A stretch of DNA of 64,000 bases. It comes from Eledone cirrhosa (taxonomy: Eukaryota). Positions 28,730-61,824 of this stretch are shown piece after piece. The stretch is from the NCBI GenBank assembly GCA_964016885.1, contig OZ024743.1, positions 19,344,001 to 19,408,000 on the forward strand, in the 5' to 3' direction. Both the position numbers and the translations under genes were made by a program. How positions within the stretch are numbered: position 1 is the stretch's first letter; each line of letters starts with the position of its first letter. Under the pieces are notes generated by a model that had not been told where the DNA came from, made no database searches, and was given only the letters and a program-made list of their open reading frames with translations.

Positions 28730-28731
<2 letters not shown>

Positions 28732-29000: not shown

Positions 29001-32000
29001 CTATAGTCTGATGTAGAGTGAAGGCCCATTCACACGAGCCATTCTCGCCACTTTCACCCATCTTTCATAAAAACGGCTGGGGTGCAGCACCTCTCTCTCC
29101 ATCCTGATCCTTCTTCCGAAATGATATCGGAAGAAACGGACCAGTTGTTGGCCAGAGAGAAAGGTGTCTGACCTCAGTCCTTTCAGACGCGTCCACCATA
29201 CAACCTCTTTCGCCATGGCTATTACGCACAGAAACACCGCCTCTCCTTCGTTTTTGAAGAGGGGAGGCGGCTTGATCGTTACAATAGACTTGGTGGTCAA
29301 CCGGATCGGTCCCACCCTTGACAGCAGTTGTTCGACATAGCTCCACAGATCTGCAATGCCCGAGCAGTGTACCAATGCGTGTGCAACGATTTCCTCGACG
29401 CACACGCATCTGGGACAGATCTTTTTCGAGGGGTCCCTATCAGGGTGCCCGTGTCTGTAGAGTCTTTCTCGAACGGGCAGAGACCCTCGGTAGCACTGCC
29501 AGGCCAGGGACCTCTGGAAGTTATCCATGGGTCCCGGGCTGAATGTCCTACCGAACAGGTTGGCCAGTTCGTCTTCCTCCATGCCTAGGGCTTCTCCGAG
29601 GGCGTCGTCGCACCTGCTAACCACCAGCCCTCTATAGAATGACGAGGTGGATTCTCCACTGACAGCCGGGTCCGCCTGCCAGAGAGCCGTGAGAGCCTGG
29701 GTACACTCGGTGTGCCAGGCGCCGACTTTTCTCGGTCTTTGCTTGATCCAGGATTGCAGCTCGGTGAGTGAGACGAGTCTGGGAAAGGCTCGCCTCATAA
29801 AGGGGGCCCACACCGGTTGACCCGTGAGGAATACCTGGAGGTGCCGTAGCCTTAATACGTGTTTACGCATCATTAGCCACGGCATCCCCAGCCCTCCTTT
29901 CGAAGGGTGTTGACAGCAGATGGAACTCCTCACCATAGGAGCCCGCTTCTTCCAGAGGAATTGGAAGAGTTCGCGTTCCATTTTGGCGAGCGTTTCCCTT
30001 GGGCAAGGCACGACGGTCAGGCGGTAGTAGATGACGGACGCTATATAAGTGTTCGCCACCTCCGCCCGACCTTTCAGGGACAGTTTGCACTCGGCCCACT
30101 TCTGGGTCAGTGCAAACACCCTGTTCGTTACCTCACCCCAGGTCTTCTCCACCTGGAAGTCTGGTCTGAACAAGACCCCGAGCAACTTCACCGGGCCCTC
30201 CGTCCAGCGCCCGACGACGCCATCGGAGGGCATCGATCTGCCCCTCCACGTGCCGAGTTGCAAACCGATCGACTTGTCCCGGTTCAGCTTAGCCCCTGTA
30301 AACGTTTCGTACTCCCCCAGTAAGGTGCCGATCGCCCCGATTTCCGAGGCCGATGACACCATAACTGTTACGTCGTCGGCGTAGGCTGACACCGCTTTCC
30401 GCAATCCCCGTTCCAACGGGATGCCCTGCAACAACTCCAACTTCCGCAGCAGTGGATATAGAGTCATTACATACAGAAGGGAGGAGAGAGGGCACCCTTA
30501 TCGGATGGACCGCGCGATTTCGAACGGCTCCGAGAAGTAGCCGTTCACCTTGACCCGAGAGCAGCAGCGGCTGCTGTGCATGGCATTGATCCAGCCCCTG
30601 AAAACGGGTCCGAAGCCTGCTGCCGCTAGCACTGCATCCAGTTAACCATGGTCAACCCTATCGAACGCGTTAGATTGATCCAAGTTGATCAGGGCCCCAC
30701 CAAAGCCGGGTTCGTTCCCAACCCTCTCTATGATGTATCGCATGAGATGGAGGTTGTCGTGGATGGACCTGGACGGGATAGCACATGTCTGCGCATCTCC
30801 CACCAGGTTTCCCACGACAAGCGCCAACCTCTTTGCTAGCACCTTGGCCAAAATCTGTAACTCTGTATTTAGCAGGGTTATGGGCCTGAAATTATTTATA
30901 TCGTCCCCCTTGTTCTCGTCCTTCCTCACTAGCGTGACTACGCCCTTGGTCACAGCACAGGAAATTCTCCTGTTCTGTTGCCAGTTGCAGTGGACCGCCT
31001 CGAGGAGATCGGGGAACAAGTCCGGCATAGCTTGATACAGTTCGTATGGAAGACCATCGAGACCCGGGGATTTGTGTTTGCCGCATTGGCTTTGCACGTC
31101 CTCTATCTCAGCGGCTGAAATCGGCTCCTCGCAGGACTTCGCCTCCCTGTCCGAGAGACGCGGCAGGCCGTCATGGTATGGACCGAAGTTCACATCCCCA
31201 ACCGTCTCCCGCCCCTTCCGAACAATCCGGCAAAGTGCTTTTGAAAAGCCTCGCACATCTGCTTAGGTTCAAGGATCACCCGTCCATCCTGGTCTCACAA
31301 AGACCGGATAGTGGATATGCTCCCTCTTTTGGCTTCTGTCACGCGGGCCCAGCTAACAGCGTTTCCCAGAACACGTATTTTGCTTCGGACGATGCAGCCT
31401 TCGTGTTTCGCGTCGAAGAACTGGCCCAGGCCGTTCTCGACGCTAGCACTCTGGCCACGCCGCCGCTTCTAATTGCCTCTTACACTATCTACCTGCTCCC
31501 TTTTCTTCCTATTTCTATTTGAGGCTAACTCTTTACTAAATTCTATAGAGACTACTCTAATCTCTCTTTTGAGAGATCCCCACCACCTGTTGTTGACGAT
31601 GGCGCCCGTCAACCGCTCCTTAACTAAAGTGCTAATCCGGTTCCTGTAAGCCTTACTTGCCGGTAAGGACAAGTTGAGCTTCCAGTAACCGTGTCCCTGT
31701 CTATGCGTTCTGTCAAGGTTGACCATGCAGCTCACTAATTTGTGGTCTGAATAGCCAACCATGCTCATTTTTGGACAACTTAAAAAGTCCTTATCCTTAT
31801 TTCTAACTAAGAACCTATCTAGGTACGACCTAGATGATCCGCTACGATTTGCCCAAGTCCAGGTTGGCGCAGTCGGAAAATCTAGTCGAAATATATCGGC
31901 CAGGTAAAATCGACCGATTAACCCTTTGAGGCTATTATACCCCTGTCTATCGGGACAGGCCCCTACGTAGTCCCAGCGTGCATCTAGGATACCATTCCAG

Positions 32001-32421
32001 TCCCCCACTAATAGCAAGGAGCGGGACGTCCCTAGAAAAGTCTCCAGACGATGGAAGAAGTCCGGCCGCAGTGACCCGAAAGGGCCGTAGGCGGCTATCA
32101 ACCTAAACGTTCCGCCTTCACCACTGCCAATGTCCAGGACCACTAGTCGACCCTCCGGGTCCAAATGAACCGTCTGTGTTGCGAGACCTAGATGTGTTTG
32201 CAGCAGAACGACAACCCCACCCCACCTCCGGGCTGACACAGAGATGCGTGCATTTCAAAGTCATCAAAGGTGGGGGCCTGCTGTCGCACGTTGCTGATCC
32301 GGGCCTCGCAAATAACCATCACATCTATACGTTGTGACCTGAGGTCATTTAGAAGCATTGCTTGCTTCCAAGTTGAGCCCAGGCCACGCGCATTTAAATA
32401 GCCTACTCTTAGCATAGCCAT
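29001..32421 (-). pseudogene. Copy A ORF2 (APE endonuclease, RT, CCHC), frameshifted
   Basis: LVGDWNGILD, SYLDRF, YSDH, KSPGLDGLPYE, NFRPITLLN, AFDRVDH, AYADDV, CPRC..HALVHC. Confidence 0.93.
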
Positions 32422-32449
32422 GTTGGTGGTGAAGAGAAAAGGCACTTGC

Positions 32450-34250
32450 CTCTCTGCCGCCCGGGTATCGGGCTGCACAATTTCCATGAGGGTGGGGGAT
32501 GGGTTGTTGGGTGGGGTGGTGGTTTGTGGAAGTGTAGGGGCATCAGTGTGTTGTGTGGTTGGGGTGTTTGGAGTTGTGTGGGTGTTTGGGGAGGGGGTGG
32601 GATAGTCTTTTAGGAGGACGCGGTTAATGGGCCCGATGCTATGGGGGGGGGGGACACGTCCTCTTTAAAGTTGTCTTTTAGAGTTTTATAAGTGTCCTTT
32701 GGGGCCTTAATCATTTTGAGGTGGGGGAAATAACCTGCCTGGGTGAAGTTAGCCCTTGGGTTATTATTAATTTGTTGTTGTACACAATGTTTAACAGTTT
32801 TTTGTTTCTTGTGTTTATGTATGTGTATGCATGTTTTTGTTTTTGTATGGTGTTTTTTGTTTGCTGTTGTTGTGTGCTCTTTTGTGTTGGTGTCAGTGTT
32901 ATGTTTTGGGGAGTGGTTGTTTTCATTGGTGTGTTTTCTTTTTTTTCTTATTTTTCTTTTGATTGTGTGGAAGTGCTGCTCCTCGACTGACGACGAACGA
33001 GGGTCATCTTCCGCGTTGGAGAGGAGGGGTATATTTTCGGGTTGTGTTTGCGGTGCGGGTGTTTTGGGAATTGTTTTTTTTTTGAGTGGGGGGATGGGTT
33101 GGACATTGTTTTATTTTGGTTTGAGCTGTGGTTGTTGTTTTTATAGTGGTGGTTATGGTGGTTGTGTTGGTTGTGCAGTTGTTGGTGGTGTAGGCAGGAT
33201 TGGAGTTTTCTTATTAAGTTGGGGACAGAGAGCCCTCAGGTGACCTCTGGTTCCACAGAGGTAACACGAGGGCCGCCTACCCTCAACGGTAATGTTGATG
33301 AAAGTTTGATCATCCAGTATGACGCGTTCAGGGATCTGGGCGATCCTTTCGGGCCTCATTTGAACTACAAGTTCGAGGCTCGTTCCACTGAACGCATCAC
33401 TCGATGCCTTTCCCATGGACACCAGCGTGTCATCATCCAGTTTCAGGAAACCTGTCAAAACCCACCATATGTCTATAATCGGCAGGATGGTGTGGATATT
33501 TATTTGTTGTGGCCTTCTACCCATGGACGTAGGGTAGAAGGTGTATGCGGTGGATGTAATTGGATTGATGGACAGTTTCACTGCTGTGTCCCTGTCCTTC
33601 ATGAGAATGGATAGACTCCCGTAGTGTCTATCCTTCTGAATGAAGGTGATGTCCTTCATGACGTCTTTTAAAACCAGCTCTATCTCACTATGTGATGGTT
33701 GAGCTCGTTTTTTGCTTTTATTTGAAATTGTCCTAAACATGACAGTGTTTAGGAGTCTCTGGCTTTTTACTTCCGGAGGGGAGTGGATAGAAAATGCACC
33801 ATTTTCCCCGTACACTATATCTTTTTTGGTATCTGCCAGTAGCTCCTTCGCTTTGGTTATATCTACTGGCAGATAGTCGAGGGTTTTCCTTGCCGTCTGG
33901 GCGAAGGAGACCTTTTCCTTTTTTGTGTTGCTGTTGTAGTTGGTGGTGTTGTTGTTATCATTGTTGTTGTTATCAAAGTTATTGGACTTGAGGTTGTTGT
34001 TATTGTTATTGGTGTTGTTTTCGTCCGTAGCATTGTTGTTGTTGTTGCTGGTGCCGCTGGTTGTTTGGTTTGTTGTCATGGCAACGTCAAGTTGTCGGTC
34101 AGCAGGTGGAGAAAATCCTTCCTCTGGTTGACCTTTGTCTTTGGCCTCTGCTACTGTGAGTGTGGCAGGGGGAAGCTGTAAGCTTATCTTCCCCTTTCCT
34201 CCTTCGAATGTTGGTGAAGGAGCTTCAGCCGTTTTAAAAAATGTTAACAT
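32450..34250 (-). pseudogene. Copy A ORF1 (nucleic-acid-binding, CCHC knuckle)
   Basis: GRRPSCYLCGTRGHLRALCP; N/T-rich N-terminus; stop at 33153 and disrupted C-terminus. Confidence 0.85.
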
Positions 34251-34454
34251 TTCAACAAAAGAAAAACTTTTTGTTTAACTATTTCGCCTAAAGGCGTAGA
34301 ATATTTTGAGAGACTGACCAGATCAAAATTTGACCTGGCAGTCCTTCTACAAAATGGTACAAAAATTAAAGTTTACAAACAGGAATTTCTATAGAAATTT
34401 AAACAGAACTTACTCAGCAAGTTTCACGCGTGTATCCATCCCAGACATAGATAT

Positions 34455-35350
34455 GTTTCTTTTATTTGCCACCAGGGCATCAAAAGTGGGACAAGTACAA
34501 AGGGGGGAGTTTACACAAAAAGGCGTCCTCAATAAGGAGGAGGCAATAACAATGTATAAAAATAAAATAAAATATAACAAAAAATAAAATTTATAACAAA
34601 ATCCTCAATAGAGAGGAGGCGCCTTGGGGGGTCGCACACACCCCCGAAAAAAGTGTGCAACCCTTTTCCTCATGAGCACAGAGAGGGGGTGCTCCCTCGT
34701 TCCTTCCTCCTTTCCACCTACAGGCTTATGTAAAGAGAAGGCCCATTCACACGGGCCATTCTCGCCACTTTCACCCACCTTTCATAAAAACGACTGGGGT
34801 GGAGCACCTCTCTCTCCATCCTGATCCTTCTTCCGAAATGATATCGGAAGAAACGGACCAGTTGTTGGCCAGAGAGAAAGGTGCCTGACCTCAGTCCTTT
34901 CAGACGCGTCCACCATACAACTTCTTTCACCATGGCTATTACGCACAGAAACACCGCCTCTCCTTCATCTATGAAGGGTGGAGGCGGCTTGATCATTACG
35001 ATAGACTCGGTGGTCAACCGGATCGGTCCCACCCTTGACAGCAGTTGTTCGACATAGCCCCACAGATCGGCTACGCCCGAGCAGTGTACCAATGCGTGTG
35101 CAACGGTTTCCTCGTCGCACACGCATCTGGGACAGATCTTTTTGGCGGGGTCCCTACCCGGGCGCCTGTGTCTGTAGAGTTTTTCTCGGACGGGTAGAGC
35201 CCCTCGGTAGCACTGCCAGGTCAGGGACTTCTGGAAGTTGTCCATAGGTCCCGGGCTGAATGTCCTACCGAACAGGCTGGCCAGTTCGTCCTCCTCCATG
35301 TCTAGGGCTTCTCCGAGGGCGTCGTCGCACCTGCTGCGTACCAGCCCTCA
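34455..35350 (-). mobile_element. Tx1 copy B, 5'-truncated (ORF2 C-terminus + 3'UTR)
   Basis: ORF 34718-35299 matches the copy A C-terminus; truncation point abuts (GATA)n. Confidence 0.93.
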
Positions 35351-35377
35351 GAGATAGATAGATAGTTATATAGATAC

Positions 35378-35426
<49 letters not shown>
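35351..35426. repeat. (GATA)n spacer
   Basis: Direct reading. Confidence 0.95.
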
Positions 35427-35427
<1 letters not shown>

Positions 35428-35660
35428 TTCTTTATTAGCCACAAGGGTGCAACGAGAAAGGGGACAATACAAAGACATGCCGGGGATTTTACATACAGTC
35501 GTGTAAAAAATATAAAAACAAACAATTTCAACAATCGAAATCCCCAATAGGGGGGAGGCACCACAAATGGGTTGTTTAATACCCCGTCGATAGAACAACC
35601 CTCAACTCGAGGAGCGTGTTGTGCAAGTGCTCCTTTCTTCCTTTTGCTCTCTTCCTCAAC

Positions 35661-38600
35661 CTACAGGCTTATAAACAGAGAAGGCCCAATCACTCGGGCC
35701 ATTTTCGCTTCATTCACCCACCTTTCAGTAAATTTACTGGGGTGCAGTGCCTCTCTCTCCACCCTGATTCTCCTTCTAAAGTGATACTTAAAGAAGGGAA
35801 TCAATTGTTGTCCGGAGAGAAAGGCATCTGTCCTCAGTCCTCTCAACCTCGTCCACCATATAACTTCTTTCACCATAGCCACCGTACAGAGGAAAACTGC
35901 CTCTATTTCGTTTTTAAAAGAGTCTGGCGGTTTGATCCTTACTATGGACTCGGCAGTCAACTGTATTTGTCCCATACGCGACAGCAGTTGTTCTGCATAG
36001 TTCCACAGTTCGCTTACGCCCGGGCAGTGTACAATTGCGTGCAGAACTGTTTCAATGTCCTGCGGACATCTTGGACACGTCCTCTTGGAAGGATCCCTGC
36101 CAGGGCGTCCGTGCCTGTAGATCTTGTCACGAACCGGTAGAGTTCCTCGGTAGCACTGCCAGGCCAGGGACCTCTGGAAGTTGTCCATAGGTCCCGGGTG
36201 GAAAGTCCTACCAAACAGACTGGTGAGCTCATCGTCTTCGACGCCCAGAGTCTCTCCGAGCACGTCGTCGCCCTTGTAACGTACAACCCCTCTATAGAAT
36301 GTCGAAGTGGAGTCTCCACTGATTGCTGCGCCCGCCTGACAGAGGACTGTGAGCGCCTGAGCGCATTCAATGTGCCAGGCCCCCATCGTTTTCGGTCTTT
36401 TCTTCACCCAGGAGTGCAGCTCCGTTAGCGAGAGGAGCTGTGGGAAAGCCTGTCTCACAAACAGTGCCCACACCGGTTGGGGGTCGGTGAGGAATACCTG
36501 GAGCTGCCGCAGCCTCAGCGCATGTTTGCGCATCATCAGCCACGGCATTCCCAGCCCTCCGTTGGAAGGGTGCTGACAGCAGACGGATCTCCTCACCAGC
36601 GGAGCCTGCTTCTTCCACAGAAACTGGAAGAGCATGCGTTCCATCTTGGCGAGATGTTCACGGGGGCAAGGCGCGACAGTCAAGCAGTAGTAAATGACGG
36701 ACGCTATGAAAGTGTTCGCCACCTCCGCTCGACCTTTCAAGGACAGTTTGCAATCTGCCCACTTCTGAGTGAGTGCAAACACCTTGGCCGTGACCTCGTT
36801 CCAGTTTTTCTCCACCTCGAGGTCTGGACCGAACAAGACCCCGAGCAATTTCACCGGTCCTTCCGTCCAGCGTCCAACGACGCTGTCGGATGTCATCGGT
36901 TTGCCTCTCCACGTACCGAGTTGCAAACCGACAGACTTGTCTGGGTTTAGTTTGCTCCCGTCAGCGTTTCGTATTCTTTCAGTATGTTGCCGATCACCCC
37001 GATTTCCGAGGTGCTCGACACCATTACCGCAACGTCGTCGGCATAAGCCGACGCCGCTTTGCGCAGTCCCGGTTCTAGGGGGATGCCCTGCAACAGCTCC
37101 AATTTCCGCAGTAGTGGCTCTAGAGTCAATACATACAGAATGGAGGAGAGAGGGCGTCCCTGTCGAATGGAACGCGTGATTGCGAACGGCTCCGATAGGT
37201 AGCCGTTCACCTTGACCCTCGAGCAGATGCTGGTGTGCATCGCCTCGATCCATCCTCTGAACACGGGACCGAAACCGGCCGCCTTGAGAACCGCTTCCAA
37301 GTATCGATGGTCGACCCTATCGAATGCCTTAGACTGATCCAAGTTGATCAGAGCCCCACCGAAGCCGGGTTTACTACCCACCCTCTCTATGATGTATCGC
37401 TTGAGGTGGAGGTTGTCGTGTATGGACCTGGTCGGGATTGCACACGTTTGCGCTTTCCCTACCAGGTTCTCGACGACAAGCGCCAACCTCGTCGCTAGCA
37501 CCTTGGCCAAAATCTTTAACTCTGTGTTGAGCAGAGTTATGGGCGTGAAGTTGTTAATTTCGTCCCCCTTGTTCTCGTCTTTCCTGATCAGCGTTACTAC
37601 GCCCTTGCCTGCAGAACTGGGAATTCTCCCGTTCTGCTGCCAATTGCAGTAGACGGCTTCGAGGACGCCAGAGAACAAGTCCGGCATGCCTATGTAAAAT
37701 TCGTAGGGTAGACCATCTAGACCGGGTGACTTGCGTTTCCCGCAGCGGCCCAGAGCGTCCCGTATCTCAGTGTCCGTGATCGTTCTTTCCCAGAACTCGG
37801 CGTCGGTGTTCGAGAGACGCGGCAGGCCGTCGAGGTATGAACTAAAGTCCATTGCCCCGTTCGGCTCACCGTCGTTCTGCTCAAACAGTCGCGCAAAGTG
37901 CCGCTGAAAGGCCGCGCACATTTGCTTGGGGTCAAGTAGCACGCGTCCGTTTTGGTCTTTCAAAGACCGAATCGTGGACTTGTTGCCACTTTTTGCCTCC
38001 GCCACTCGGGCCCAGCTGACAGATTTCGCTCCTTCGTTTCATAGAGCACGTGTTTTGCTTCTGACCACGCAGCCTTCGTGTTTCGCATCGAAGAACTGGT
38101 CAAGTGCCGTTCTCGACGCTAACACTCTAGCTGCGTTGCCACCTCTAAGTGCCTCCTCTACCTTGGCTACTAGTTCTCTTTCTATTCTGTTTTTCTCTAA
38201 GGCTAACTCTCTGCTATACCATATCGATTCTATTCTAATTGCTTTCTTGAGAGAGTACCACCATCTATTGTTGACGATGGCTCCCGTTAACTGTTGCTTG
38301 ACTAGTCTACTTATCCGTTCACTGTAAGCTTTACGTGCCGGCAACGACACGTTCAGCTTCCAGTATCCGGGACCATGTCTATGTATTCTATCACGGTTGA
38401 CTAAGCAGACGACTAAGTTATGATCTGAATAGGCAACCATGTACATTCGTGGACAGCTTAACATCTCCTTGTCCCTTTCTCTAATGAAGAACCTATCTAA
38501 ATACGATCTAGATGTCCCACTGCGGTTTACCCACGTCCACTGTGGTGCAGTCGGGAAATCCAGTCGATACCTATCGGCCAGTTGGAATTGGCCGATTAAA

Positions 38601-39106
38601 GTTTTGAGGCTGTTGCACCCCGCTCTACTGGGACATGCTCCCACATAGTCCCATCGTGCATCTAGGATACCATTCCAGTCCCCCACTAAAAGTAAGGAGC
38701 GAGACGTTCCCAGAAAAGACTCTAGACGCTTAAAGAAGTCTGGCCGTGATTGCGATTGCCCGGTCGGGGCATAAACGGCCACCAGTCTGAAGGCTCCACC
38801 TCCAATACTGTTCACGTCTAGGACTACCAGTCTACCCTCCGGGTCCAAGTGTACTTGCTGTACTCCGACGTCCAGGTTCTTCCGAAACATAACAGCCACT
38901 CCACCTCCACCTCCTGGCTGACAGAGAGATGCGTAAATCTGAAAGTCGTCGAAGATGGGGGTTAGTTGCTGCCTGTTGTGGATTCTGGACTCGGTGATGG
39001 CTATCACATCCATACTGTGTGACCTAAGGTCGTTTAAAAGTTGGCCCTGTTTCCAGGGCATCCCTAGGCCACGCACATTCACGGTTCCAACTCGTAAACC
39101 AGCCAT
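35661..39106 (-). pseudogene. Copy C ORF2 (APE-RT-CCHC), stop and frameshift
   Basis: ORF pieces 38039-39106, 36947-38005, 35661-37253 carry the APE, YADD and CCHC motifs. Confidence 0.93.
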
Positions 39107-39149
39107 GTTGGTGAAGAAATGTTGGAGAAAAAGGACGAAAGGTGCACTT

Positions 39150-41030
39150 ACCTTTTCGTTTCCTGGAGATCGGGTTGTTCAATCTCCATTTGGGTGCTGG
39201 ATGGGTGTTGGGTGGGGTGGGGAAACATTTCAACAGGACGCGGTTGATGGCTTTGTGGCAGGGGTTGCCCACGTCCTGTGAAAATTTAATTTTTAAGTCT
39301 TTATAGGTTTCCATAGAAACCCTTATAAGTTTAAGGTGTGGAGACGATTCTGCCTTGACGAAAGTTTTGCCCTCCGTCTCCACCTTGGGGTTTTGGGAGA
39401 TGACCTCCATCAAACTCTTGTTGTTTGTGTTGATGTATGCGTATTGTTGTTTGTGTTTTTGTTGTGTTGTTTTAGTTTGTTGTTCATCCGGGAGTTTTCT
39501 TTTTATGGTGGGTGCTTGTGTTTGGGGTGGTGTTGGTGCTGGTTTTGCTGATAGGGGGATGTTTGACTGTGGTGTTGTTTGTGTCTGTGGTTGTGTGTTG
39601 GTGTTGGTGATTGGAGTTTTGGGGGTTTTGTGGTGTCTCTTTTTTTGTTTTTAGATTTCCGCGGTTCTCCCTCTTTTTCACTTAAAGAAGGAGAAGCAGC
39701 TTCATCCGTCGATGAATAATCATCGTCAGGTGTGTGGGGTAAGGGTATGTTGTGTGGTGGTGGTGGTGTTTCGGTATGTGTGTTTGTGGTAGTGTTTGAT
39801 GGAGTGGGATGGAGTGGGGATGTGTTCTTCAGGGGTGTTTTTTCTGTTGTTGTTGGTTGAGTGTCTGTTTGTTTTGGTGTGGTTGCTCGTTTCGTCTGTC
39901 GTTGTACTTGTGGTGGTGGTGGTGGTTGTTTTGGTGTTGGTGTTGGTAATAGCGTTTTTTTTATGATGTTGTTGTTGTGTGTTTGTGGACAAGAGGCTTT
40001 TAGCTGAGATGTGCTACCACAGCGAAAGCAATGAAATTTTCGTCATTCTACCGAAATGTTTATTTTGTTGTTATTATCAATAACGACTCTTTCGGGTATT
40101 TAGGAGATTCTCTCCGGTTTCGTTTGCAACAGAATCTCAAAATCGGTGCCCGCCCACCTTTGTAGAATAGATTTTCGTATCGAAAGTATTATGTATGTTT
40201 CTGGCTCTACGAAGCCAGCCAAGATCCACCAGATGTTAATGCTTGGGGGTATGTTTTTTATTTTTATTTTTTGTGTCCTTTTCCCCATGTATGTAGGGAA
40301 AAAGGTGTATGCTTTTGACACTATTGGTGTCACAGAGTTTTTTGGGGCGAGTGCCTCACTTTTAAACAGTACGGAAACACTTCCGTACTGTTTTCCTCGC
40401 TGGAGAAAATCGACATTTCCTATAATCTCCTTGAAAGAATCTTCTATATCTGCTTGATTAACAAATGTCGGTGTTCTTGACGAATTTGACACAGTCCTAA
40501 AGGTGACTGATCGGCGGTTTGTGTCTTCCTTTATTTCAAGGGGTGAGTTAATTCTAAACCCACCTCTTTCTTCGAAAGTTACAAATGTTCTCCCTTGCTG
40601 GAGCATATCTCTTGCGTTGGAGATATCAAGATTTATAAAATCTTGTTTCTTGTTCACTGTGTCAGCGAAAGACATTTTCTTTTTTTGTGTGGTGGTGTTG
40701 TTGATAATGATGTTATCGTTGTTTGAAATTTTATGTGTAGATGTATCTGTAGAGTTGTTGATGTCTTTTTCATGTGTATGTATGTCAATGGGTTTTTTTG
40801 CTGTGTTTTCCTGTGTGTTATTGTCATTTTTCTCCGCTTCGGCGGTAGAAATCGTAAAATTTTCAAATGTTGATATAATTTTTTTCTTTTATGACAGTTG
40901 TATCTATGGCAACGTCCATAGCAGCAGAAGCAGATATAACGTTAATATATGCCTCTTTCTCTCTCTTTTCTCTATTAATGTTCTCCAGCGTTCTAGTGTT
41001 GCTCAAGTTTTTTACTTTGTAAAATCTGAT
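39150..41030 (-). pseudogene. Copy C ORF1, disrupted
   Basis: SFAD..FFPTYMGKRTQKIKI core and KAINRVLLK C-terminal block; start uncertain. Confidence 0.8.
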
Positions 41031-41214
41031 ATTTTAAAACAAATTCTTTGAAATAAAATGTTCGCCCCTACAGGGGCGAAACATAGGATTACCACCCAGC
41101 TGACAATTCAGCTTGGGGGTTAATCTACAAAGTGTTGTATTTTTTTCAAACAATTAGATCGGTTTTTTGCATAGAAATTAACAAAAAACTTACCGGCGAT
41201 ATTCCACACGTCAG

Positions 41215-41216
41215 AC

Positions 41217-41311
<95 letters not shown>

Positions 41312-41377: not shown

Positions 41378-41592
41378 TTTCTTTATTTACCATAAAGGCA
41401 TAAAAAGAAGGGACAAATACAAAGGGGGAGTTTACATATAATCGAGTAAAAAGGGTGTAACATGAAAATAATCGAAAATAACCTCAAAATGGAGGGGACG
41501 TGATGGGGGTTGCACACACCCCCGAAAAAGTGTGCAATCCTTTGCCCGGGGAGCACATGGAGAAGGTGCTCCCCTCTCCTTTACTTCTTTAC

Positions 41593-47688: not shown

Positions 47689-47707
47689 AGATAGATAGAT
47701 AGGTAGG

Positions 47708-50745: not shown

Positions 50746-50789
50746 CTTGGTGAAGAAGAGTTAGGGAGAGAAAAGGCAGAAACACTTAC

Positions 50790-52647
50790 AGTTTCGTTTC
50801 CTAGAGGTCGGGTTGTTCGATCTCCATGTCCAGATTGGGGGTGTTTGGGGAGGTAGAAAATCCTTATAGCAGGACACGGTTAAAAGGTTTTTGGCAAGGG
50901 GGGACCACATCATGTGGGAAGGTACCTTTCAATGTTTCATGTTGTAGGATGGATACCCTGATTAGTTTGAGGTTTGGGGGTGCGTCGTTGGTGGGGAAGG
51001 TTTTCCCTTCCGTTAGGATAGTAGAGTCCTTTCGGAAAGTTTCTAGTACTTTGTTTGTTGTTTTTATGCAAGTGTAATGTGTTTTGTTTTTTCTGTGTGC
51101 TGTTTCTGTTTGTAGTTTTCTTTTTGTGGTTGGGGTTTGTGATTGTGGTGGTGTGGGTGTTTGTTTTGTTGGTGAAGTGTTTGGTTGTGTTGGTGGTGAT
51201 TGTGTTGTTGGTGTGTTTGTCGTTTGTGGCAGTGTGTTTATGGTCGGGTTGTGTGTGTGCGTGTTTTCTGTAGATGTTTTTGTTTTTGTGGTTTTTTTGT
51301 CTCTTTTTTGTTTTTTGGATTTTGGGGGTTCCTCTTCATTCTCACTTGGAGATGTAGAGGTTCCCGTGTCTGAGACTTCTGAATCAGGGGTAGATGGGAG
51401 GGGTATGTTGTGTGGTGGAATGGTTGTGACAGGGAGGGAGGAGACAATGGAGGGTATTTCAGTGGGATTTTTGTGTGTGTGGTTGTCTCTGGTCTGTGGT
51501 GGTGTGGGGGTAGATGTTGCAGGTTTCTGTGTTGTGATTTGTTTGGGGTGTTGATGTTGGTGTTTTGGTGTTGGTAATAACACCTTGTTTGTCCTCGGTT
51601 TATTTAGAGAGGGCAAAAGGCCTTTAAGTGTGTGGTTTTTCACACTTATAGCACCGAGGTCTTTCCCCTCCACTAAAATGGAGATGACTACTTCCTAAAG
51701 GACGATCCTGTCCGGGATTTTCTCAACTCTCTCTGGCCCCATTTGTACCAGAACCTCGATGCAGGTTCCAAACCAGTTATTTCGGTCTGTGCTGTCTACG
51801 GATAGGAGTGTGTCCTCATCCTTCTTCAGGATGCAGCGTAGGATCCACCATATGTTGACCTCTGTTGGGATCCTGGTTATTTTTATTTTGTAGGATCTTC
51901 TTCCCATTTATGTGGGGAAGAAGATGTGTTGATCCGTTATTTATTGGGTGAACCGAGTGATTTGAGCCAAAGTTTCGCTCTTAAAGAACACTGACACACT
52001 TCCATACTGTTTAGCTCTTTGGAGGTATGCCACGTCTGGCTTGATATCTTTTAGTGCAGCTTCAATAGTGCTTGTTAGAAGCGTTATGGGTTTTTTTGCT
52101 ATTGATGTGAACTGTTCTGTAGTGTAGTTTCTTTTTCTGTGTCATCTCTCTTACCTTTGGGGGTATGTGTATGTGTGGGGTGTCTCTCTCAAACGTCACA
52201 TAGTTGGAAGCTTCTTCCAAATATTGGGCCTTTTGGGAAATGTCCATGGGGTAATATTTAAAATCCTGTTGCTTAGCAACGGTTGCTGCAAATGAAATGT
52301 TGTTATTGTTGTCGTTGGTGGTGATGATGGTCCATTTCGTTGTGTTGCCGCTGATTCCTTTTGTTGTATTGTTGTTGTTCTCATTTATTGTGTTGTTGTT
52401 GCTTGTGGTGGTGTTAGTATTTGTTACACATTCTTCCTTCTGTGCGTGGATATATGTGACGTTTGTGACGTCATGCGTGTTCAGTTGCTTACAAGCAACT
52501 GAAGCTTGTTCCTCTTCTAAATCTTGAGGCGATAATGGTGGCATTCCTTTGTCCGTGTCTGCTACTATCTGCTAGTCAAGTAGCCATTGCTTTCCCTTCC
52601 CATCTTCTTGTATTGACAAAGAAGCCGGTGCCTTTGCTTCGGCCATT
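50790..52647 (-). pseudogene. Copy E ORF1, disrupted
   Basis: ISFAATV, MGRRSYKIKI..VNIWW, KPFNRVLL. Confidence 0.8.
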
Positions 52648-52858
52648 TTTTTAAAATTAAAGTGTTTTGCAAAACGTTTTCGAAAATATGTTGGATGTTT
52701 TTGCCCTGAGGGGCACGATATTTTGGCAGACTGACAGATCAAAATTTGACCTGTCAGTCCCTCTACAAATTGGTATAAAAATAAAAGTTCACAATGACGA
52801 ATTTCTAAAGAAATTTAAACATAATTACCGAGCAAGTTGAACACATGTGTCCATCCCT

Positions 52859-52916
52859 AGATAGATAGATAGATAGATAGATAGATGGAGAGATAGATAG
52901 ATATATATATAGATAT
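52859..52916. repeat. (GATA)n spacer
   Basis: Direct reading. Confidence 0.93.
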
Positions 52917-53155
52917 GTTTCTTTATTAGCCCCAGGGGCAGAAAAGAAGGGGACAAATACAAAGGGGGAAGTTTACATACAATAAAAACGTGTAAAATGT
53001 TATCACAAATGGAATTTAAAAAGTTAGTCGATTTTCCCAAATAGAGGGAGACAGTTTATATGGGTAACACATACCCCCGAAAAAAATGTGCAACCCTCAT
53101 CTCCAGGAGTACGAAGAGTTTGTACTCCTTTCCTCTCCTCCTCCTTTTCCTCAAC

Positions 53156-56100
53156 CTACAGGCTGATATAGAGAGAAGGCCCATTCACTTGGGCCATTCT
53201 CGCCACTTTCACCCACCTTTTATAAAACTTGCTGGGGTACAGCACCTCTCTCTCCATCCTGATTCTTCTTCCAAAGTGGTATTTTAAAACAAGAATCAGT
53301 TGTTGGCCGGACATAAAGGTGTCTGACCTCAGCCCTTTCAACCTTGTCCACCATACAACCTCTTTCGCCATAGCTATCACACAAAGGAAAACCGCTTCTC
53401 CATCGTTTTTGAAGGAGGGTGGCGGTTTGATCATGACAATGGATTCGGTGGTCAACTGTATTGGTCCCACCCGCGACAATAGTCGTTCTACATAGCCCCA
53501 CAGGTCATTGAACCCCGGGCAGTGTATGTATGCGTGTACGACGCTTTCTTCGTCTCGCACGCACCTCGGACAGATCTTTTTTGCAGGGTCCCTGCCCGGG
53601 CGCACATGTCTGTAGAGCTTGTCTCGAACTGGTAGAGCTCCTCGGTAGCACTGCCAGGCCAGGGACTTTTGGAAGTTGTCCATCGGTCCCGGGCGGAAGG
53701 TCCTATCGAACAGACTGGCCAGTTCATCTTCCTCTACTTCTAGAGTTTCACCGAGCGCGTCGTTGCACTTGCTGCGGATAAACCCTCTATAGAATGACGA
53801 AGTGGAGTCTCCACTGATCGCCGGGTCCGGCTGCCAGAGAGCTGTGAGCGCCTGAGCACATTCGATGTGCCAGTCGCCCATTTTCCTCGGTCTTTGCTTG
53901 ACCCAGGACTGCAGCTCGGTCAGCGAGACGAGTCGTGAGAATTCTCGCCTCACGAACGGCGCCCACACCGGTTGTCCGGTGAGGAATACGTAGAGATGCC
54001 ACAGCCTGAGCGGGTGTTTGCGCATCGTCAACCACGGCATCCCCAGCCCTCCGTTAGAAGGGTGTTGGCAGCAGATGGATCTTCTCACCAAAGGAGCCCG
54101 CCTCTTCCAAAGGAATCAGAAGTGCGCGCGTTCCATTTTGGCGAGCGTTTTGGCTGGACAAGGCACGACGGTCAAGCGATTTGCGAGGCGCTCGACACCA
54201 TTACTGTCACGTCGTCGGCGTAGGCCGACGCCGCTTTCCGCAGTCCCGGTTCCAGAGGGATGCCTTGCAATAGCTCCAACTTCCGCAGTGGTGGCTCGAG
54301 AATCAGTACGTACAGAAGGGAGGAGAGAGGGCATCCCTGTCGAATGGATCGCGTAATATGGAACAGCTCCGAGAGGTAGCCGTTCACCTTGACCCTTGAG
54401 CAGATGTTGCTGTTGTGCATTGCAGCAATCCAGCCCCTGAACACGGGTCCGAAGCCTGCCGCCTCGAGCACCGCATCCAGGTAACGATGGTCAACCCTAT
54501 CGAAAGCCTTAGACTGATCCAAGTTGATCAGGGCCCCACCGAAGCCGGGTTTACACCCTACTCTCTCTATGATGTATCGCATGAGGTGGAGGTTGTCGTG
54601 TATGGACCTGGTCGGGATTGCGCATGTCTGCGCTTCTCCCACCAGGTTCTCGACGACAAGCGCCAGCCTCTTTGCCAACACCTTGGCCAAAATCTCTAAC
54701 TCCGTGTTTAGCAGAGTTTTTTGGCCGGAAGTTGCCTTTGTCATCCCCCTTATTCTCGTCCTTCCTGATTAGTGTGACCACGCCCCCGGTTACAGAACTG
54801 GGAATTCTCCCGTTCTGTTGCCAGTTGCAGTAGACCGCTTCCAGGAGACCGGAGAATAAGTCCGGCATTGCTACGTAAAATTCGTAGGGTAGACCGTCGA
54901 GACCTGGAGATTTGCGTTTGCCGCATTGGCTCAGCGCGTCCCCTATCTCAGCGTCTGAAATCGGCTTTTCGCAGAAATCGCCTCGCTCTCCGAGACTCGC
55001 GGTAGGCCGTCGAGGTATGAACCGAAATCCATAGCCTCTCCCGGCGCGCCGCCCCTCTCGAACAGTTGAGCAAAGTGCCGCTGAAAAGCCGCACACATCT
55101 GCTTCGGCTCACGTTTCACGCGTCCGTTTTGGTCCTTCAAAGACCGAATCGTGGACTTGTTGCAACTTTTTGCCTCCGTCACTCGGGCCCAGCTAACAGC
55201 TTTGGCTCCCTCGTTTCCTAGAGCACGTATTTTGCTCTGACAACAAAGCCCTCGTGCTTTGCGTCGAAGAACTGGTCCAAGGCCGTTCTCGTTGCTAGCA
55301 CGCTGGCTACGTTGCCACTTCTAATTGCCTCTTCTACTTTATCTACCAGTTCCTTCTCGGTTCTATTTCTATCTAACGCTAATTCTTTACTAAAAACTAT
55401 CGAGTCTAATCTAACTGCCCTCTTGAGAGAGTACCACCATCGGTTATGACAATGGCCCCTGTCAAGTGCTGTTTAACTAAAGTGCTAATCCGTCTACTGT
55501 AGGCTGTGCTTGTCGGTAACGACAAGTTCAGCTTCCAGTAGCCGGGTCCTTGTCTATGGGTTCTATCAAGGTTGGCCATACAGGTCACTAGTTTGTGATC
55601 TCAATAGGCAACCATGAATATTTGTGGACAGCTTAACATGTCCCTATCCTTATTTCTAACTAGAAACCTATCTAGGTACGATCTAGATGTTCCGCTACGA
55701 TTACTCCACGTCCACAGTGGCGCAGTCGGAAAATCTAGTCGATATCTATCGGCCATGTCAAATCGGTCGATTAACTGTTTGAGGCTGTTACACCCCCCTT
55801 TATCTGGACATTCTCCCACATAGTCCCAACGTGCATCTAGGATTCCATTCCAGTACCCCATTAAAAGCAAGGAGCGGGACGTTCCCAGAAAAGTCTCTCG
55901 ACGTTTGTAGAAGTCCCGGATGGGGCATATGCGGCCACCAGCCTGAAGGCTCCACCTTCACTACCGTCAACGTCTAGGACCACCAGTCGACCCTCCGGGT
56001 CCAGATGTACCGTCTGTGTTACGAGGCCCAGGTGTTTCCGCAGTGAAACGGCAACTCCGCCCTCACCCCCCGGTTGACAGAGAGATGCGTAGATCTCAAA

Positions 56101-56262
56101 GTCATCGAAGATGGGGGCCAGCTGTCGCTCGCTGTGGATCCTGGACTGGCAAATGGCTACCACATCCATACTGTGCGACCCGAGGTTGTTTAAGAGTTTG
56201 CCCTGTTTCCATGGCATCCCCAGGCCGCGTACGTTCACACATCCAACTCTTATATTGGCCAT
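53156..56262 (-). pseudogene. Copy F ORF2, disrupted
   Basis: APE, RQGCPLS, AYADDV and CPRC..HAYIHC in fragments. Confidence 0.92.
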
Positions 56263-56295
56263 GTTGGTGCTGAAAAGTTAAAAGAGGAAAAGAGA

Positions 56296-58206
56296 TCACT
56301 CACCCTTCGTCTCCTGGGGACCAGTCCGCACGATTTCCATGGGGGTGTTGGAGGGGTTGTCTGGATGGGAGGTGGTTTCTGGCGGGGTGGGGACGGAGAT
56401 GTTTGGTGGGGTGGGGTCTGGTGGGATGGGGGTGTCTGGGGTGGGGAGACATTTGAGAAGGACGCGGTTGAGTGGTTTCACGCAGGAATTCCCCACATCC
56501 TTCTCAAATGTTTCTTTTAGGGACCTATAAGTTTGTATAGGGACCCTAATCAGTTTTAGGTTCATTCTTTTGCTATTTTTAATAGAGTGGGCGAAAGTTT
56601 TCCCTTCGGTTTTCACCGAAGGGTCGTTCGTGATGGTCTCCATTAGTGTTTTGTTTTCAGTGTTTATGTAAGTGTAAGTGTAATTTTCTTGTGTTGTGTT
56701 TGTTTTTGTCTGCAGTTCTTGTGTGCGCTTTCGTTTTGTTGTAGGTATTTTGTTTTCAGGAGGTGGGGGGTTTTGTTTGTGATGTTATTATAGTTTGTGT
56801 CGGTGGTTGTATGTTTGTGGTAGTGTTTGCTGGTTTTTTGCATTTGTGATGTCTTTTCTTTCTTTTCGAGCGATGAGGTTCTCCCTCGTCTTCACTGGGT
56901 GATGGCGAGATAGCCTCATCTGTTGTATCGTCTGTGTGATTGGGGAGGGGTATGTCTTGGGGAGCTGTTGTGTCTGTATGTGATTTTGCAGTGCTTTTAG
57001 GTGGAGTGGGGTTGGGTGGGACTGTGTTTGTTGTGGTTATTTTTGTGTGCTGGTGTTGTTGTTGTGGTGGTGTTGGTGGTTGTGTTGTTTTGATGGGTGT
57101 CGGCAGAAGAGCCTTTTTTTATCATTAATTTAGGACAGGAAGCCCTCAGGTGACCCCTGCTAAAGCAATGGTAACATGAAGGCCGCCTACCCTCAACCAA
57201 AAAGTTTATGTAGGTGAGTCCGCCCAGGAGTACACGTTGTGGGATCATAGCTATTCGCTCTGGGCTCATTTGCACCAGAACTTCAATGCTAGTCCCATTG
57301 AATACATCTCTGGGGGACTTTCCTATTGACAGTATTCTGTCTTCATCAAAATTGATCAAGCCGCACATTATCCACCATATGTTCACCTTTGGTGTGACAC
57401 TCGTGATTCTGATCTTTTGTGTCCTTTTTCCCATGTATGTAGGGAAAAAGGTGTACAGGTTGGATACAATTGGCGACACAGAGTAATTTTTGGCCGTCAA
57501 TTGATCCTTCATGAGTACCGAAATACTCCCAAAAAGTTTGCTTCTTTGAATGAATGCAATATCATTCATTGAATTTTTGAAAACCTCAATTTCTTTCTGT
57601 GACAATTGGACTGGTTTTCTGGTAGAATTGGAAACTGTCCTAGAAACTATCGTTTTGAGAGCAGTTTCCTTGCAAATTTCTACCGGAGAATTGATGCTGA
57701 AAGCACCATTTTTTTCGAAAGTGACATATCTCCTAGCGTCCTTTAAAAGTTGTTCAGCATTTGTTATGTCGAGATATATCAATTCCTCCTTTTTTTTTAA
57801 CTTTCTCTGCAAATGAGATTTTTGGTTTCTTTGTGGAATCCGTGTTGTTGGTGTTGTCATTATTGTTGTTATTGTTGTTGTTATTCTTGTTGTCACCGAT
57901 GTTGGTATTATTCGTATTTTCCTTGGTGTTGTTGTTGTCTTTGATGCTGCTGTTATTGGTGTTGTCTTTATTTTTTTCTTTGTTGTTGTTATCATTGTTG
58001 CTTTTATCATCATTATTGGTGTTGCGGTTATTTTTGTTGTCATTGAATTTTTTGGTGTCATTTGTGTTGTTTGGATATGAATTCGTTTTTACATTTTTAT
58101 TTCATCTTTCCATCTCTATAGTATCTAGTGGAGAAGACGTTGTTGACTGCGAGCATTGTAGTCTTATCGCCTCTCCACCACCATTATCGTTGGACGCAGC
58201 GTTCAT
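56296..58206 (-). pseudogene. Copy F ORF1, disrupted
   Basis: GRRPSCYHCFSRGHLRASCP; KPLNRVLLK. Confidence 0.85.
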
Positions 58207-58425
58207 AACGTAATCAAACTTTTACAATATTTTTTGCAAGATTCGATGGAGAAATTTTTTTTTTCAAATGGATATTCCGCCCCCGTAGGGGCGAAATTGA
58301 TTTGACCACCACCTGAAGGTCCAGCCGGGGGGTCAAGTTACACAATGATATAAAATTTAACTAAAGAATCACATTTTTTTCTTACATAAATTAACGGAAA
58401 CTTCTCCGCGAAGTTACACACGTCT

Positions 58426-58436
58426 GATAAAGAGAG

Positions 58437-58528
<92 letters not shown>
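58426..58528. repeat. (GATA)n spacer
   Basis: Direct reading. Confidence 0.95.
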
Positions 58529-58530
<2 letters not shown>

Positions 58531-58756
58531 GTTTCTATTTATTTGCAACGAGGGCACAAAAGAAGGGAACAAATACAAGGGGGCGGAGTTTACATAAAGG
58601 AAAGAGTAAAAAATAAATAACAAATATAAAATTAACAATACAGTTCTCAATAGGGAGGAGGCGTTTTGGGGGTTACACGCACCCCCGTAAAAGTGTGCAA
58701 CCCTTTTCCTTAGGAGCACAGAGAGGGCGTGCTCCTTTGCACTTCCACCTTTCCAC

Positions 58757-61700
58757 TTACAGGCTGATAAAGAGAAAAGGTCCATTCACACGGGCCATTC
58801 TCGCTCCTTTCACCCACCTTTCATAAAACTTGCTGGGGTAGAGCACTTCTTCCTCCATTCTGATCCTTCTCTTAAAATGGTATTTAAAGAAAAGGACCAG
58901 TTGTTGGCCGGGGAGAAAGTGTCCGACCTCAGCCCTGTCAAACGTGTCCACCATGTAACCTCTTTCACCATGGCTATTACACAGAGGAAGACCGCCTCTC
59001 CTTCATTTTTGGAGGGGGGAGGCGGCTTGATCGTTACAATGGAGTCAGTGGTCAACCGAATTGGTCCCACCCGTGACAGCAGTCGTTCTTCATAGCCCCA
59101 CAGATCGGCAACGCCCGAGCAGTGTACCAATGTGTGCGCAACGGTTTCCTCGTCGCGCACGCATCTGGGACAGATTTTTTCGAGGAGTCCCTACCCGGGC
59201 GCCCGTGTCTGTAGAGCTTTTCTCGAGGTGCCGTAGTGTTAATGCGTGTTTACGCATCAGCAGCCACGGCATCCACGGCCCTCCTTTCGAAGGTTGTTGA
59301 CAGCAGATGGATCTCCTCAACAAAGGAGCCCGCTTCTTCCAAAGGAATTGGAAGAGTGCGCGCTTCATGTTGGTGAGCGTTTCCCTTGGGCAAGGCATGA
59401 CGGTCAAGCGGTAATAGATGATGGACGCTCGATCTCTCAGGGATAGTTTGCATTCCGCCCACTTCCGTGTCAGCGGAAAAACCCTGTTCGATACCTCACC
59501 CCAGTTCTTATCCACTTCGAGGTCTGGCCCTAACCAGACCCGAGCAACTTCACCGGGTCCTCCGTCCAACGTCCGACTACGCCATTGGAGGCCATCCGTT
59601 CGACCTCCACTCGCCGAGTGGCAAGCCGATTGACTTGTCCCGGTTCAGTTTAGCCCCTGTAAACGTTTCGTATTCCTCCAGTAAGGTGCTGATCACTCCG
59701 ATTTCCGAGGCGGTTAATAGCATTACTGTCACGTCATCGGCGTAGGCCGACACCGCTTTCCGCAATCCCGGTTCCAAAGGGATGCCCTGTAACAACTCCA
59801 ACTTCCGTAGCAGTGGCTCTAGGGCCAATACATACAGAAGGGAGGAGAGAGGGCATCCCTGTCGGATGGACCGCGTGATTTCGAACGGCTCCGAGAAGTA
59901 GCCGTTCACCTTGACCCTAGAGCAGATGCGGCTGATGTGCATGGCAGTGATCCAGCCTCTGAAAACGGATCCGAAACCTACGCAACTAGCACCGCATCCA
60001 GGTAACGATGGTCGATCCTATCGAACGCCTTGGATTGATTCAAGTTGATCAGGGCCCCACCAAAGCCGGGTTCGTTCCCAACACTCACTATGATGTATCG
60101 CATGAGATGGAGGTTGTCGTGAATGGACCTGGACGGGATGGCGCATATCTGCGCATCTCCCACCAGGTTGCCCACGACAAGCGCCAACCTCTTTGCTAAC
60201 CCATTGGCCAAAATCTTTAACTCTGCATTTAGCAATGTTATGGGCCCAAAATTACTTATTTCATCCCCCTTGTTCTCGTCCTTCCTCACTAGCAAGACTA
60301 TGCCCTTGGTCACAGAACAGGGAATTCTTCCGTTCTGTTGCCAGTTGTAGTAGACCACTTCGAGGAGATCGGAGAACAAGTCCGGCATACTTAAATACAG
60401 TTCGTATGGAAGACCATCGAGGCCCGGAGATTTACGTCTGCCGCATTGGCTCAGCACGTCCCCTATTTCAGCAGCTGAGATAGGCCTCTCGTAGGACTTC
60501 GCCTCCTCGTCCGAAAGACGCGCCAGGCCGTCGAGGTATGGACAGTGGTCCACATCCCCATCTGGCCCCTCGTCGCTTCCGAACAATAGGTCAAAGTGCC
60601 TTTGAAAGGCCTCGCACATCTGCTTAGGCTCAAGGATCACCCGTCCATCCTGTTCTCGCAAATACCGGATAGTGGATCTAATCCCACTTTTGGTTTCTGT
60701 CACGCGGGCCCAGCTAACAGCTTTGATCCCCTCGTTTCCCAGAGCACGTATTTTGCTTCGGACAACGCAGCCTTCGTGTTTTGCGTCGAAGAACTGGCCT
60801 AAGGCCGTTCTCGACGCTAACACTCTGGCTACGTCGCCGCTTCTAATTGCCTCTTCTACACTATCTACCAACTCCCTTTCCTTCCTATTTCTATCTGAAG
60901 CAAACTCCTTACTAACTCCTATTGAAGCTACTCGAATCTCTCTTTTGAGAGAGCCCCACCACCTGCTGTTGATGATGGCGCCCGTTAACCGCTCCTTAAC
61001 TAATGTACTAATCCGGTTCCTGTAAGCTTTACCTGCCGGTAAGGAGAAGTTGAGCTTCCAGTAACCGGGTCCCTGTCTATGCGTTCTATTAAGGTTGACC
61101 ATGGAGGTCACTAACTTGTGGTCTGAATAGCCAACCATGAGCATTTTTGGACAACTTAAAAAGTCCCTATTCTTATTATAACTAAGAACCTATCTAGGTA
61201 CGATCTAGATTGACCGCTATGGTTTCTCCAAGTCCAGGTTGGCACAGTCGGAAAATCTAGTCGAAATCTATCGGCCAGGTCGAATCGGCCGATTAACCCC
61301 TTGAGGCTGTCACAACCCCCTCTATCAGAACATGCCCCTACATAGTCCCAACGTGCATCTAGGATACCATTCCAGTCCCCACTAAAAGCAAGGAGCAAGG
61401 AGCAAGGAGCGGGACGTCCATAGAAAAGTCTCCAGACGATGGAAGAAGTCCAGCCGCGTTGACCCAAAAGGGCCGTAGACGGCGACCAGCCTAAAAGCTC
61501 CGCCTTCACCACTGCCAAGGTCCAGAACCACTAGTCGACCCTCCGTTCCAAGTGTACCGTCTGTGTACCGATGTTTTTGCAGCAGAACTACAACCCACCC
61601 CCACCTCCGGGCAGACACAGAGATGCGTGCATCTCAAAGTCATCAAAGGTGGGGGCTAGCTGTCGCTGCTGATCCGGGCCTCGCAAATAACCATCACATT

Positions 61701-61796
61701 TATACATCGTGACCTGAGGTCATTTAGAAGCATTGCTTGCTTCCAAGGTGAGCCCAGGCCACGCGCATTTAGACAACCTATTCTCAACACAGCCAT
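58757..61796 (-). pseudogene. Copy G ORF2, disrupted
   Basis: GDWNGILD, YSDH, KSPGLDGLPYE, RQGCPLS, AYADDV. Confidence 0.92.
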
Positions 61797-61824
61797 GTTG
61801 GTGGTAAAGAGAAAAGGTACTTAC

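Follow-up and report, generated by a model that had tools for sequence, protein, structure and literature searches.

Long interspersed nuclear elements (LINEs) are thought to depend on an unspliced bicistronic RNA. Splicing of retrotransposon RNA has been described in other settings. The Drosophila long terminal repeat (LTR) element copia splices out one intron spanning all of POL, the whole enzyme region, which leaves a message for the structural protein only (in the account given in PMC5580714, citing Yoshioka 1990). In the shGAG RNAs of Arabidopsis EVADE (EVD) and barley BARE1, there is a conserved 5' splice site (donor) at the end of gag, splicing brings in a stop codon shortly past the junction, and U1 also represses premature termination (PMC5580714, in part). 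Human L1, with its spliced integrated retrotransposed elements (SpIREs), is a LINE with a conserved functional donor (PMC5860796, in part). Here we analyzed a stretch of 64,000 nucleotides from Eledone cirrhosa (assembly GCA_964016885.1, contig OZ024743.1, positions 19,344,001 to 19,408,000 of the forward strand), denoted the window, which contains a run of L1/Tx1-type LINEs with two open reading frames, called ORF1 and ORF2. We found that these LINEs keep a donor motif at the end of ORF1. The donor is a deeply conserved feature of this LINE clade, unreported in the literature searched, and it is plausible from the sequence patterns that ORF2 as a whole serves as an intron.

The proposed arrangement resembles copia in that a single intron would cover the whole enzyme region. 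However, copia is a single-ORF LTR element with demonstrated splicing, whereas the LINE clade has two ORFs, of which ORF1 has its own stop codon, usually inside the donor, and its splicing is predicted. EVADE and BARE1 share the conserved donor but have short introns, located in the protease region, and their splicing is coupled to early polyadenylation (PMC5580714, in part). The intron proposed here is about 3.5 kb long, and its spliced RNA would rely on the normal poly(A) signal. Kibi, Koshi, and crocodilian Tx1 elements likewise have two ORFs, an apurinic/apyrimidinic endonuclease (APE), a reverse transcriptase (RT), a zinc finger, and insertion into microsatellites, but the tails of the LINEs analyzed here are (TATC)n or (ATT)n, and the available part of PMC4494074 describes no donor between the ORFs of the former. 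Thirteen recently active L1-Tx1 families have been described in Octopus vulgaris (PMC13282606, in part). The string "splic" was absent from the available parts of PMC13282606 and PMC9115989, while the TART paper lists introns in transcripts of L1, Tad, kangaroo-1, and Penelope (PMC1636488, in part). Removal of ORF2 by splicing in a LINE was not found in titles and abstract openings, a scope that mostly excludes subscription papers and Repbase Reports. Papers on Tad transcription, on copia, and on zebrafish ZfL2 splice sites may hold a partial precedent.

The window consists, from 28.7 to 64 kb, of head-to-tail non-LTR retrotransposons on the minus strand, each terminating in AATAAA followed by (TATC)n (Table 1). 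Nine LINE copies were identified, six with ORF1 (A, C, D, E, F, and G) and three truncated at the 5' end. The copies are nested in TATC runs, which may be either tail or target sequence. An initial annotation of the window had read ORF2 as intron-like, with a donor just before its ATG and an acceptor at its stop codon. We recovered the six donor-like motifs and the eight ORF2 ends at the minus-strand positions and with the letters it had given, as well as a donor-to-ATG distance of 28-45 nt (A 28, C 45, D 37, F 41, and G 28; the ATG of E is mutated). Five copies, not six, have both ends (A, C, D, F, and G): copy E, counted as two-ended, lacks its ORF2 end owing to a deletion near 48455-48489, and the ends at 34718, 47552, and 47952 are those of the 5'-truncated copies. 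The GC-type donor, which had been listed as a tolerated variant, turned out to be a mutation confined to copy A, with other copies of its family reading GAG/GTAAGT (the slash marks the putative junction). The flanks had been described as poorly conserved, which is the case across a wider set of families, but within the window the ORF1 side is fairly conserved (M-E-I/V motif).

To survey the donor across the 3.0-Gb genome, we searched with the ORF2-start pattern alone and obtained 11,074 places. Among the first 30 of these, 29 had a donor matching at least 8 of the 9 positions of the donor consensus, located 15-55 nt ahead of the ATG, compared to 13 of 1091 other 40-nt windows in the same type of element. 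By eye, the donor is present in about 98 of the 100 places listed. We then chose 40 elements to span the families and built a tree of 44. Over the first 1.4 kb of ORF2, identity among the nine main families is 64-88%. Six donor positions (-2A, -1G, +1G, +2T, +5G, and +6T) are invariant in all nine families, while no column from -15 to -3 or from +7 to +16 is invariant; for comparison, 52 of 208 fourfold sites in ORF2 are invariant. In a set of 14 representatives, positions -1, +1, +2, and +6 remain invariant. The comparison of the donor with neighboring sites over many copies, which the initial annotation had put forward as a check, thus came out in favor of the donor. The motif has the match to U1 and the conservation beyond coding need that characterize a 5' splice site. 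In the young family of copy C, the 40 best copies, the window copy included, are 98-100% identical, and 491 exact unspliced donors were found genome-wide. The donor of copy D is offset by 1 nt relative to its family, in which TAG is the ORF1 stop. The donor was absent in all 29 distant L1-group relatives (the complete non-redundant ORF2 sequences among 80 metagenome loci). One distant relative (31% identity; L082:1960-1994) has GAG/GTAAGA, with its ORF1 stop inside the motif, 32 nt before the ORF2 ATG, a 7/9 match that may be due to chance.

Donor positions +2..+4 form the ORF1 stop codon in most families (..AG/G TAA GT), which the initial annotation had overlooked, and the variants GTAAGT, GTAGGT, and GTGAGT therefore correspond to the three stop codons. 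Because the donor overlaps the ORF1 stop and the candidate acceptor AG comes from the ORF2 stop, both ends needed to be tested against translation signals. In families P and K and in one subfamily of F, the donor is intact in phase 1, where it is translated as G-K or G-E, with ORF1 ending in ..GK or ..GE and the stop moved to +6..+8. The sister families K and Q differ in phase, and both have AAG/GTAAGT. The ORF1 stop does not explain the donor, since the donor survives changes in the ORF1 frame. The ORF1 codons of the phase-1 families (P, K, and the F subfamily) do not dictate its letters either: GGT makes up 27 of 108 Gly codons and AAG 67 of 302 Lys codons. In the phase-2 families, ORF1 closes with a conserved Arg. 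Of 39 invariant Arg codons, only 5 have G in the third position throughout. The spacer and the CCAAC-ATG context are likewise conserved. The spacer from donor to ORF2 ATG is 25-52 nt long across families, is pyrimidine-rich, and is without AG in most of them.

These observations are consistent with partial splicing that joins the donor to an AG in the ORF2 stop or shortly upstream of it, yielding an ORF1-only mRNA beside the unspliced genomic RNA, to which we assign a probability of roughly 0.5. The one strong motif at the end of ORF1 would be bound by U1, and in part of the transcripts ORF2 would be spliced out, with ORF1 joined to an AG at or near the ORF2 stop. ORF1p would be the only product of the spliced RNA, which in family C would measure about 2.3 kb, while the unspliced RNA would provide ORF2p and the template for retrotransposition. 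Pairing a strong donor with a weak acceptor would limit splicing to a fraction of the transcripts, as retroviruses do. Splicing would then set the ORF1p:ORF2p ratio, as the initial annotation had supposed, and the spliced RNA would be excluded from reverse transcription. The broader proposal, in which ORF2 is a retained intron throughout an octopod LINE clade of about 11,000 copies and the spliced ORF1 mRNA is barred from retrotransposition despite its 3' untranslated region (UTR), is tentative and falls a little short of an even bet. If true, partial splicing would represent a retrovirus-like expression strategy in a non-LTR element and a new answer to the question of how LINEs make far more ORF1p than ORF2p. 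That a donor this close to perfect has been retained between ORF1 and ORF2 despite deep divergence and changes of frame suggests that these LINEs put the spliceosome or U1 to positive use. About 11,000 copies have the ORF2-start motif, and since nearly all of those sampled have the donor, they could alter host transcripts.

The reading of ORF2 as an intron held up well at the donor, which is conserved in every family sampled and across frame changes, but the acceptor half is only suggestive. The ORF2 stop is TAG in eight of nine families. On a simple score, the AG of the stop codon is surpassed by at most one of about 260 AGs in six of nine families (J, M, D, A, F, and C), and by 3 in P, 12 in K, and 87 in Q. 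As removal of the intron deletes the ORF1 stop, the second exon must supply one. With the stop TAG as acceptor, ORF1 stops immediately in J, M, D, P, and K. Requiring a stop directly after TAG in the family's own phase gave no signal (five families match, three match only in the other phase, and two in neither). When any AG from -20 to +3 was allowed, 10 of 10 families reached a stop within three codons in their own phase, using AGs from -13 to 0, compared to 5 of 10 in the other phase and 10-11 of 29 in donor-less relatives; this test was post hoc, with thresholds fixed after viewing the data, and the families represent about four or five independent states. It gives modest support to splicing near the ORF2 end. 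In copy C, the phase-2 donor joined to the AG at 35668..35669 would let ORF1 terminate at the ORF2 stop.

Other features around the acceptor were less informative. No clear shared branch point was seen by eye 18-40 nt upstream of the acceptor in alignment A3. In the stem formed by the last ORF2 codons, more than 90% of cells pair, with no covariation. The purine-rich stretch after the stop is also described in human L1 (PMC5860796, in part) and hence is no specific mark of splicing. A mini-intron running from the donor to an AG ahead of the ORF2 ATG was rejected as a shared mechanism because the CAG it requires is restricted to F and P and the intron would be shorter than 45 nt.

Several findings weigh against splicing of ORF2. 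At the donor, family N has T at +5 (this family, one copy with a partly deleted ORF2, stands outside the nine-family invariance count), and protein constraint alone yields a donor-like AAG/GTGGGT in seven of nine ORF2 sequences at an E-R-W-V motif. The pyrimidine tract reported at the ORF2 ends is there in its letters but is no richer than the amino acids predict: shuffling the last six codons synonymously yields comparable tracts (P 0.15-0.95), which bears out the annotation's own caveat that acceptor conservation may be protein-driven. Family Q, among the commonest in the sample, has TAA as its ORF2 stop, and the AG available in frame there is of the rare GAG type. Use of the stop TAG itself would add 27-79 residues to ORF1 in A, F, and C. 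The AGs needed for early termination are weak, being AAG in A, C, and the F representative and GAG in Q and N. In human L1, the donor is in the 5' UTR, is rarely used, and is kept for a RUNX3 site, and splicing is described as harmful to the element (PMC5860796, in part).

The search for retrocopies lacking the donor-to-TAG interval, which had been proposed as a check, also counts against splicing, as none was found by junction probes of the genome for families A, C, D, E, F, P, J, and Q. The exact family-C junction had no match, compared to the 491 exact unspliced donors, and a family-C probe open to other acceptors had one match, an unspliced variant. A junction pattern shared by A, C, D, E, F, and P matched five places, all unspliced point variants. 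The P and J probes had no matches. Of the 11 matches of the Q probe, nine reflect small local changes, one an inversion, and one a junction with unrelated DNA; the 3' UTR is reached in none. These probes left out family K and the -7 acceptor of A and F, and those for J, P, and Q had no unspliced count beside them. None of 126 UTR starts follows an ORF1 end, in loci sampled mostly around ORF2. Since the 3' end is only about 230 nt from the predicted junction, the junction should be present even in truncated copies. ORF1 followed by the 3' UTR, the layout of the predicted spliced RNA, is also that of HAL1, the ORF1-only derivatives of L1, but these are genomic elements, whereas none of the 55 copies chosen here on ORF1 alone is joined to the 3' UTR. 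The spliced RNA would retain the 3' UTR, including its covarying hairpin. Its lack of retrocopies suggests either that splicing is rare in the germ line or that ORF2p acts strictly in cis, a mode of action described for L1 (PMC5860796, in part). The spliced RNAs of human L1, in contrast, keep ORF2 and do leave retrocopies (PMC5860796, in part). In four contig sets of unrecorded kind aligned to copy C, the 39152-35660 joint was absent among 15 of the 260 joints, with 24 of 3685 loose ends listed. One of the sets (X4, 88 Mb) spans ORF1 and ORF2 more uniformly than the remaining three, but depth in contigs does not rank the parts, and these data weigh neither way.

The main rival to partial splicing is that the donor binds the U1 small nuclear ribonucleoprotein and is seldom spliced. 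Bound U1 would keep the full-length RNA from being cleaved too early at AATAAA signals within the A-rich ORF1, or would stabilize it in another way. A strong donor that faces no acceptor both conserved and canonical would fit this explanation, as would the lack of spliced retrocopies, the presence of AATAAA or ATTAAA 295-345 nt upstream of the donor in five of nine families, and the EVD donor's repression of premature termination (PMC5580714, in part). We nevertheless consider it unlikely. ORF2 carries only 0-1 AATAAA, leaving little downstream for U1 to protect, the upstream signal is missing in K and single and far upstream in M, and U1 binding without splicing does not predict the in-phase stop after terminal AGs. 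Alternatively, the donor could be spliced to another acceptor, such as TTCTATAG at ORF2 +2816, which would fuse ORF1 to the zinc-finger end of ORF2 in phase-2 families. The AG of this site is found in nine of nine families, is in phase 2, and has the best mean score of 119 conserved AG columns, above that of the stop AG (14.8 vs 13.4), which also counts against the ORF2 stop as acceptor. However, it is the top pick of 119 columns and lies within a conserved F-Y-R motif, splicing to it would not be in frame in phase-1 families, and the C, J, P, and Q probes, open to about half of the possible acceptor sequences, revealed no retrocopy. Splicing to this site is thus improbable. In the window (36292-36299, minus strand), TTCTATAG and the following purine are identical in all nine families, synonymous positions included.

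The motif could also be a donor look-alike, either a translation signal for ORF1 termination and reinitiation at the ORF2 ATG over the pyrimidine spacer, or a DNA element such as a factor site or an internal promoter. In phase-2 families, positions +2..+4 are the ORF1 stop, and a G after the stop, here donor +5, is a strong termination context; the Arg of the last codon, the spacer, and the CCAAC-ATG context are conserved as well. For a DNA element, there is the example of human L1, which retains its donor for the RUNX3 site (PMC5860796, in part). Against both versions, the motif is intact where the stop is at +6..+8 (P, K, and the F subfamily), the Gly and Lys codon usage of these families does not account for its letters, and the invariant positions coincide with the U1 consensus, so that we regard a look-alike as improbable too. 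Shared descent could in principle have left the motif as a functionless by-product, given that the families have common ancestry and that any single position would stay invariant with a probability of about 25%. This is very improbable, being largely refuted by the invariance and donor-score tests: six positions are invariant within variable flanks, and the motif has survived both frame changes and a spacer length varying from 25 to 52 nt.

In the 3' UTR, a hairpin is located 30-55 nt past the ORF2 stop in all families. In alignment A3, 85.7% of its cells pair, a level reached by 0 of 500 shuffles and exceeding every slid version. The hairpin covaries and probably serves as a 3' recognition element for ORF2p.

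To place the clade, we examined an intact relative, in which ORF1 has 639 aa and ORF2 1148 aa. The 1148-aa ORF2 contains an endonuclease (PF03372), an RT (PF00078), and a zinc-finger end (PF13966, below its cut-off), and its best solved structural relative is human L1 ORF2p (E 4e-54). Across families, ORF1 has 595-651 aa, with a weak zinc-knuckle match (E 0.05). The elements belong to the L1 group of non-LTR retrotransposons, given the APE, RT, and C-terminal zinc finger in ORF2, the separate ORF1, the 5' truncation, and the simple-repeat tail after a poly(A) signal. The layout and the microsatellite setting are compatible with the Tx1 label; the homologues found carry no Tx1 name. Named homologues were found in Argonauta hians for ORF2 (62%) and in Octopus sinensis and O. 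bimaculoides for ORF1, which fits an octopod host. The ORF1 of copy D had no homologue by word search and no Pfam family. A profile of the ORF1 C-terminal domain matched 15 proteins from other sources. Three of them terminate in GK and another three in R, a hint that this ORF1 end also exists outside this genome.

Among the ORF1 homologues, the Octopus sinensis model XP_036364761.1 (P0123) ends in ..TLGK-KWKQN, beyond the usual GK end. Its best match in this genome is family K (32%), which has FERWKN followed by a stop just past the ORF2 stop (3' UTR of L222). The protein may be a spliced gene model, but the frames disagree with the AGs of family K itself. The tails also vary: families Q, P, and N have (ATT)n (3' ends of L052 and L053), the window families have (TATC)n, and K has neither, from which it follows that the type of tail or target shifted within the clade.

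Table 1 Positions of LINE copies and their features in the window (position 1 is the first nucleotide of the 64,000).
Feature	Position	Strand	Remarks
Copy A, decayed, ORF1 and ORF2, AATAAA + (TATC)n end	28731..34450	-	limits approximate
Donor of copy A, GC variant GAG/GCAAGT	32444..32449	-	same change abolishes ORF1 stop
ORF2 stop TAG of copy A, candidate acceptor	29001..29003	-	CAG 7 nt upstream
Copy B, 5'-truncated, without donor	34455..35352	-	ORF2 stop TAG 34718-34720
Copy C, young family	35425..41221	-	
Donor of copy C, AAG/GTAAGT, phase 2	39146..39151	-	contained TAA is the ORF1 stop (..ETKR-stop)
Pyrimidine-rich spacer of copy C, CCAAC end	39107..39145	-	followed by ORF2 ATG (39106)
Internal acceptor-like site TTCTATAG of copy C, ORF2 +2816	36292..36299	-	rival acceptor; AG in 9/9 families
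Short GGCCC..GGGCC stem, last ORF2 codons of copy C	35683..35700	-	
AG 7 nt ahead of the end of the ORF2 stop, copy C	35668..35669	-	
ORF2 stop TAG of copy C	35661..35663	-	acceptor named in the initial annotation
3' UTR hairpin of copy C	35611..35633	-	covarying across families
Copy D	41380..47230	-	limits approximate; donor AAG/GTAGGT 45076-45081; ORF2 ATG 45044; stop TAG 41593-41595
Two 5'-truncated copies	47300..48231	-	ORF2 stops 47552-47554, 47952-47954
Copy E, decayed	48260..52860	-	limits approximate; donor ACT/GTAAGT 50784-50789; ORF2 end and acceptor deleted
Copy F	52905..58437	-	donor AGG/GTGAGT 56298-56303, phase 1 (..KGE-stop); ORF2 ATG 56262; stop TAG 53156-53158
Copy G, decayed	58530..63830	-	donor GAG/GTAAGT 61819-61824; ORF2 ATG 61796; stop TAA 58757-58759, CAG 7 nt upstream

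A tandem run resembling that of the window was found at G000:C1:4225256-4255762, where six ORF2 starts of family J follow each other at a spacing of about 5.7-7 kb. Copy A and two further loci (L209 and L234) have a 5' part and a 3' end from different families, which suggests that recombination or template switching has occurred between families. In family C (L038:6060-6131, minus strand), the ORF2 frame is open for 24 codons ahead of its ATG, overlapping the end of ORF1. Outside the LINE run, two open frames, one of 321 aa on the plus strand and one of 156 aa on the minus strand, are located at 23737-24944 of the window.

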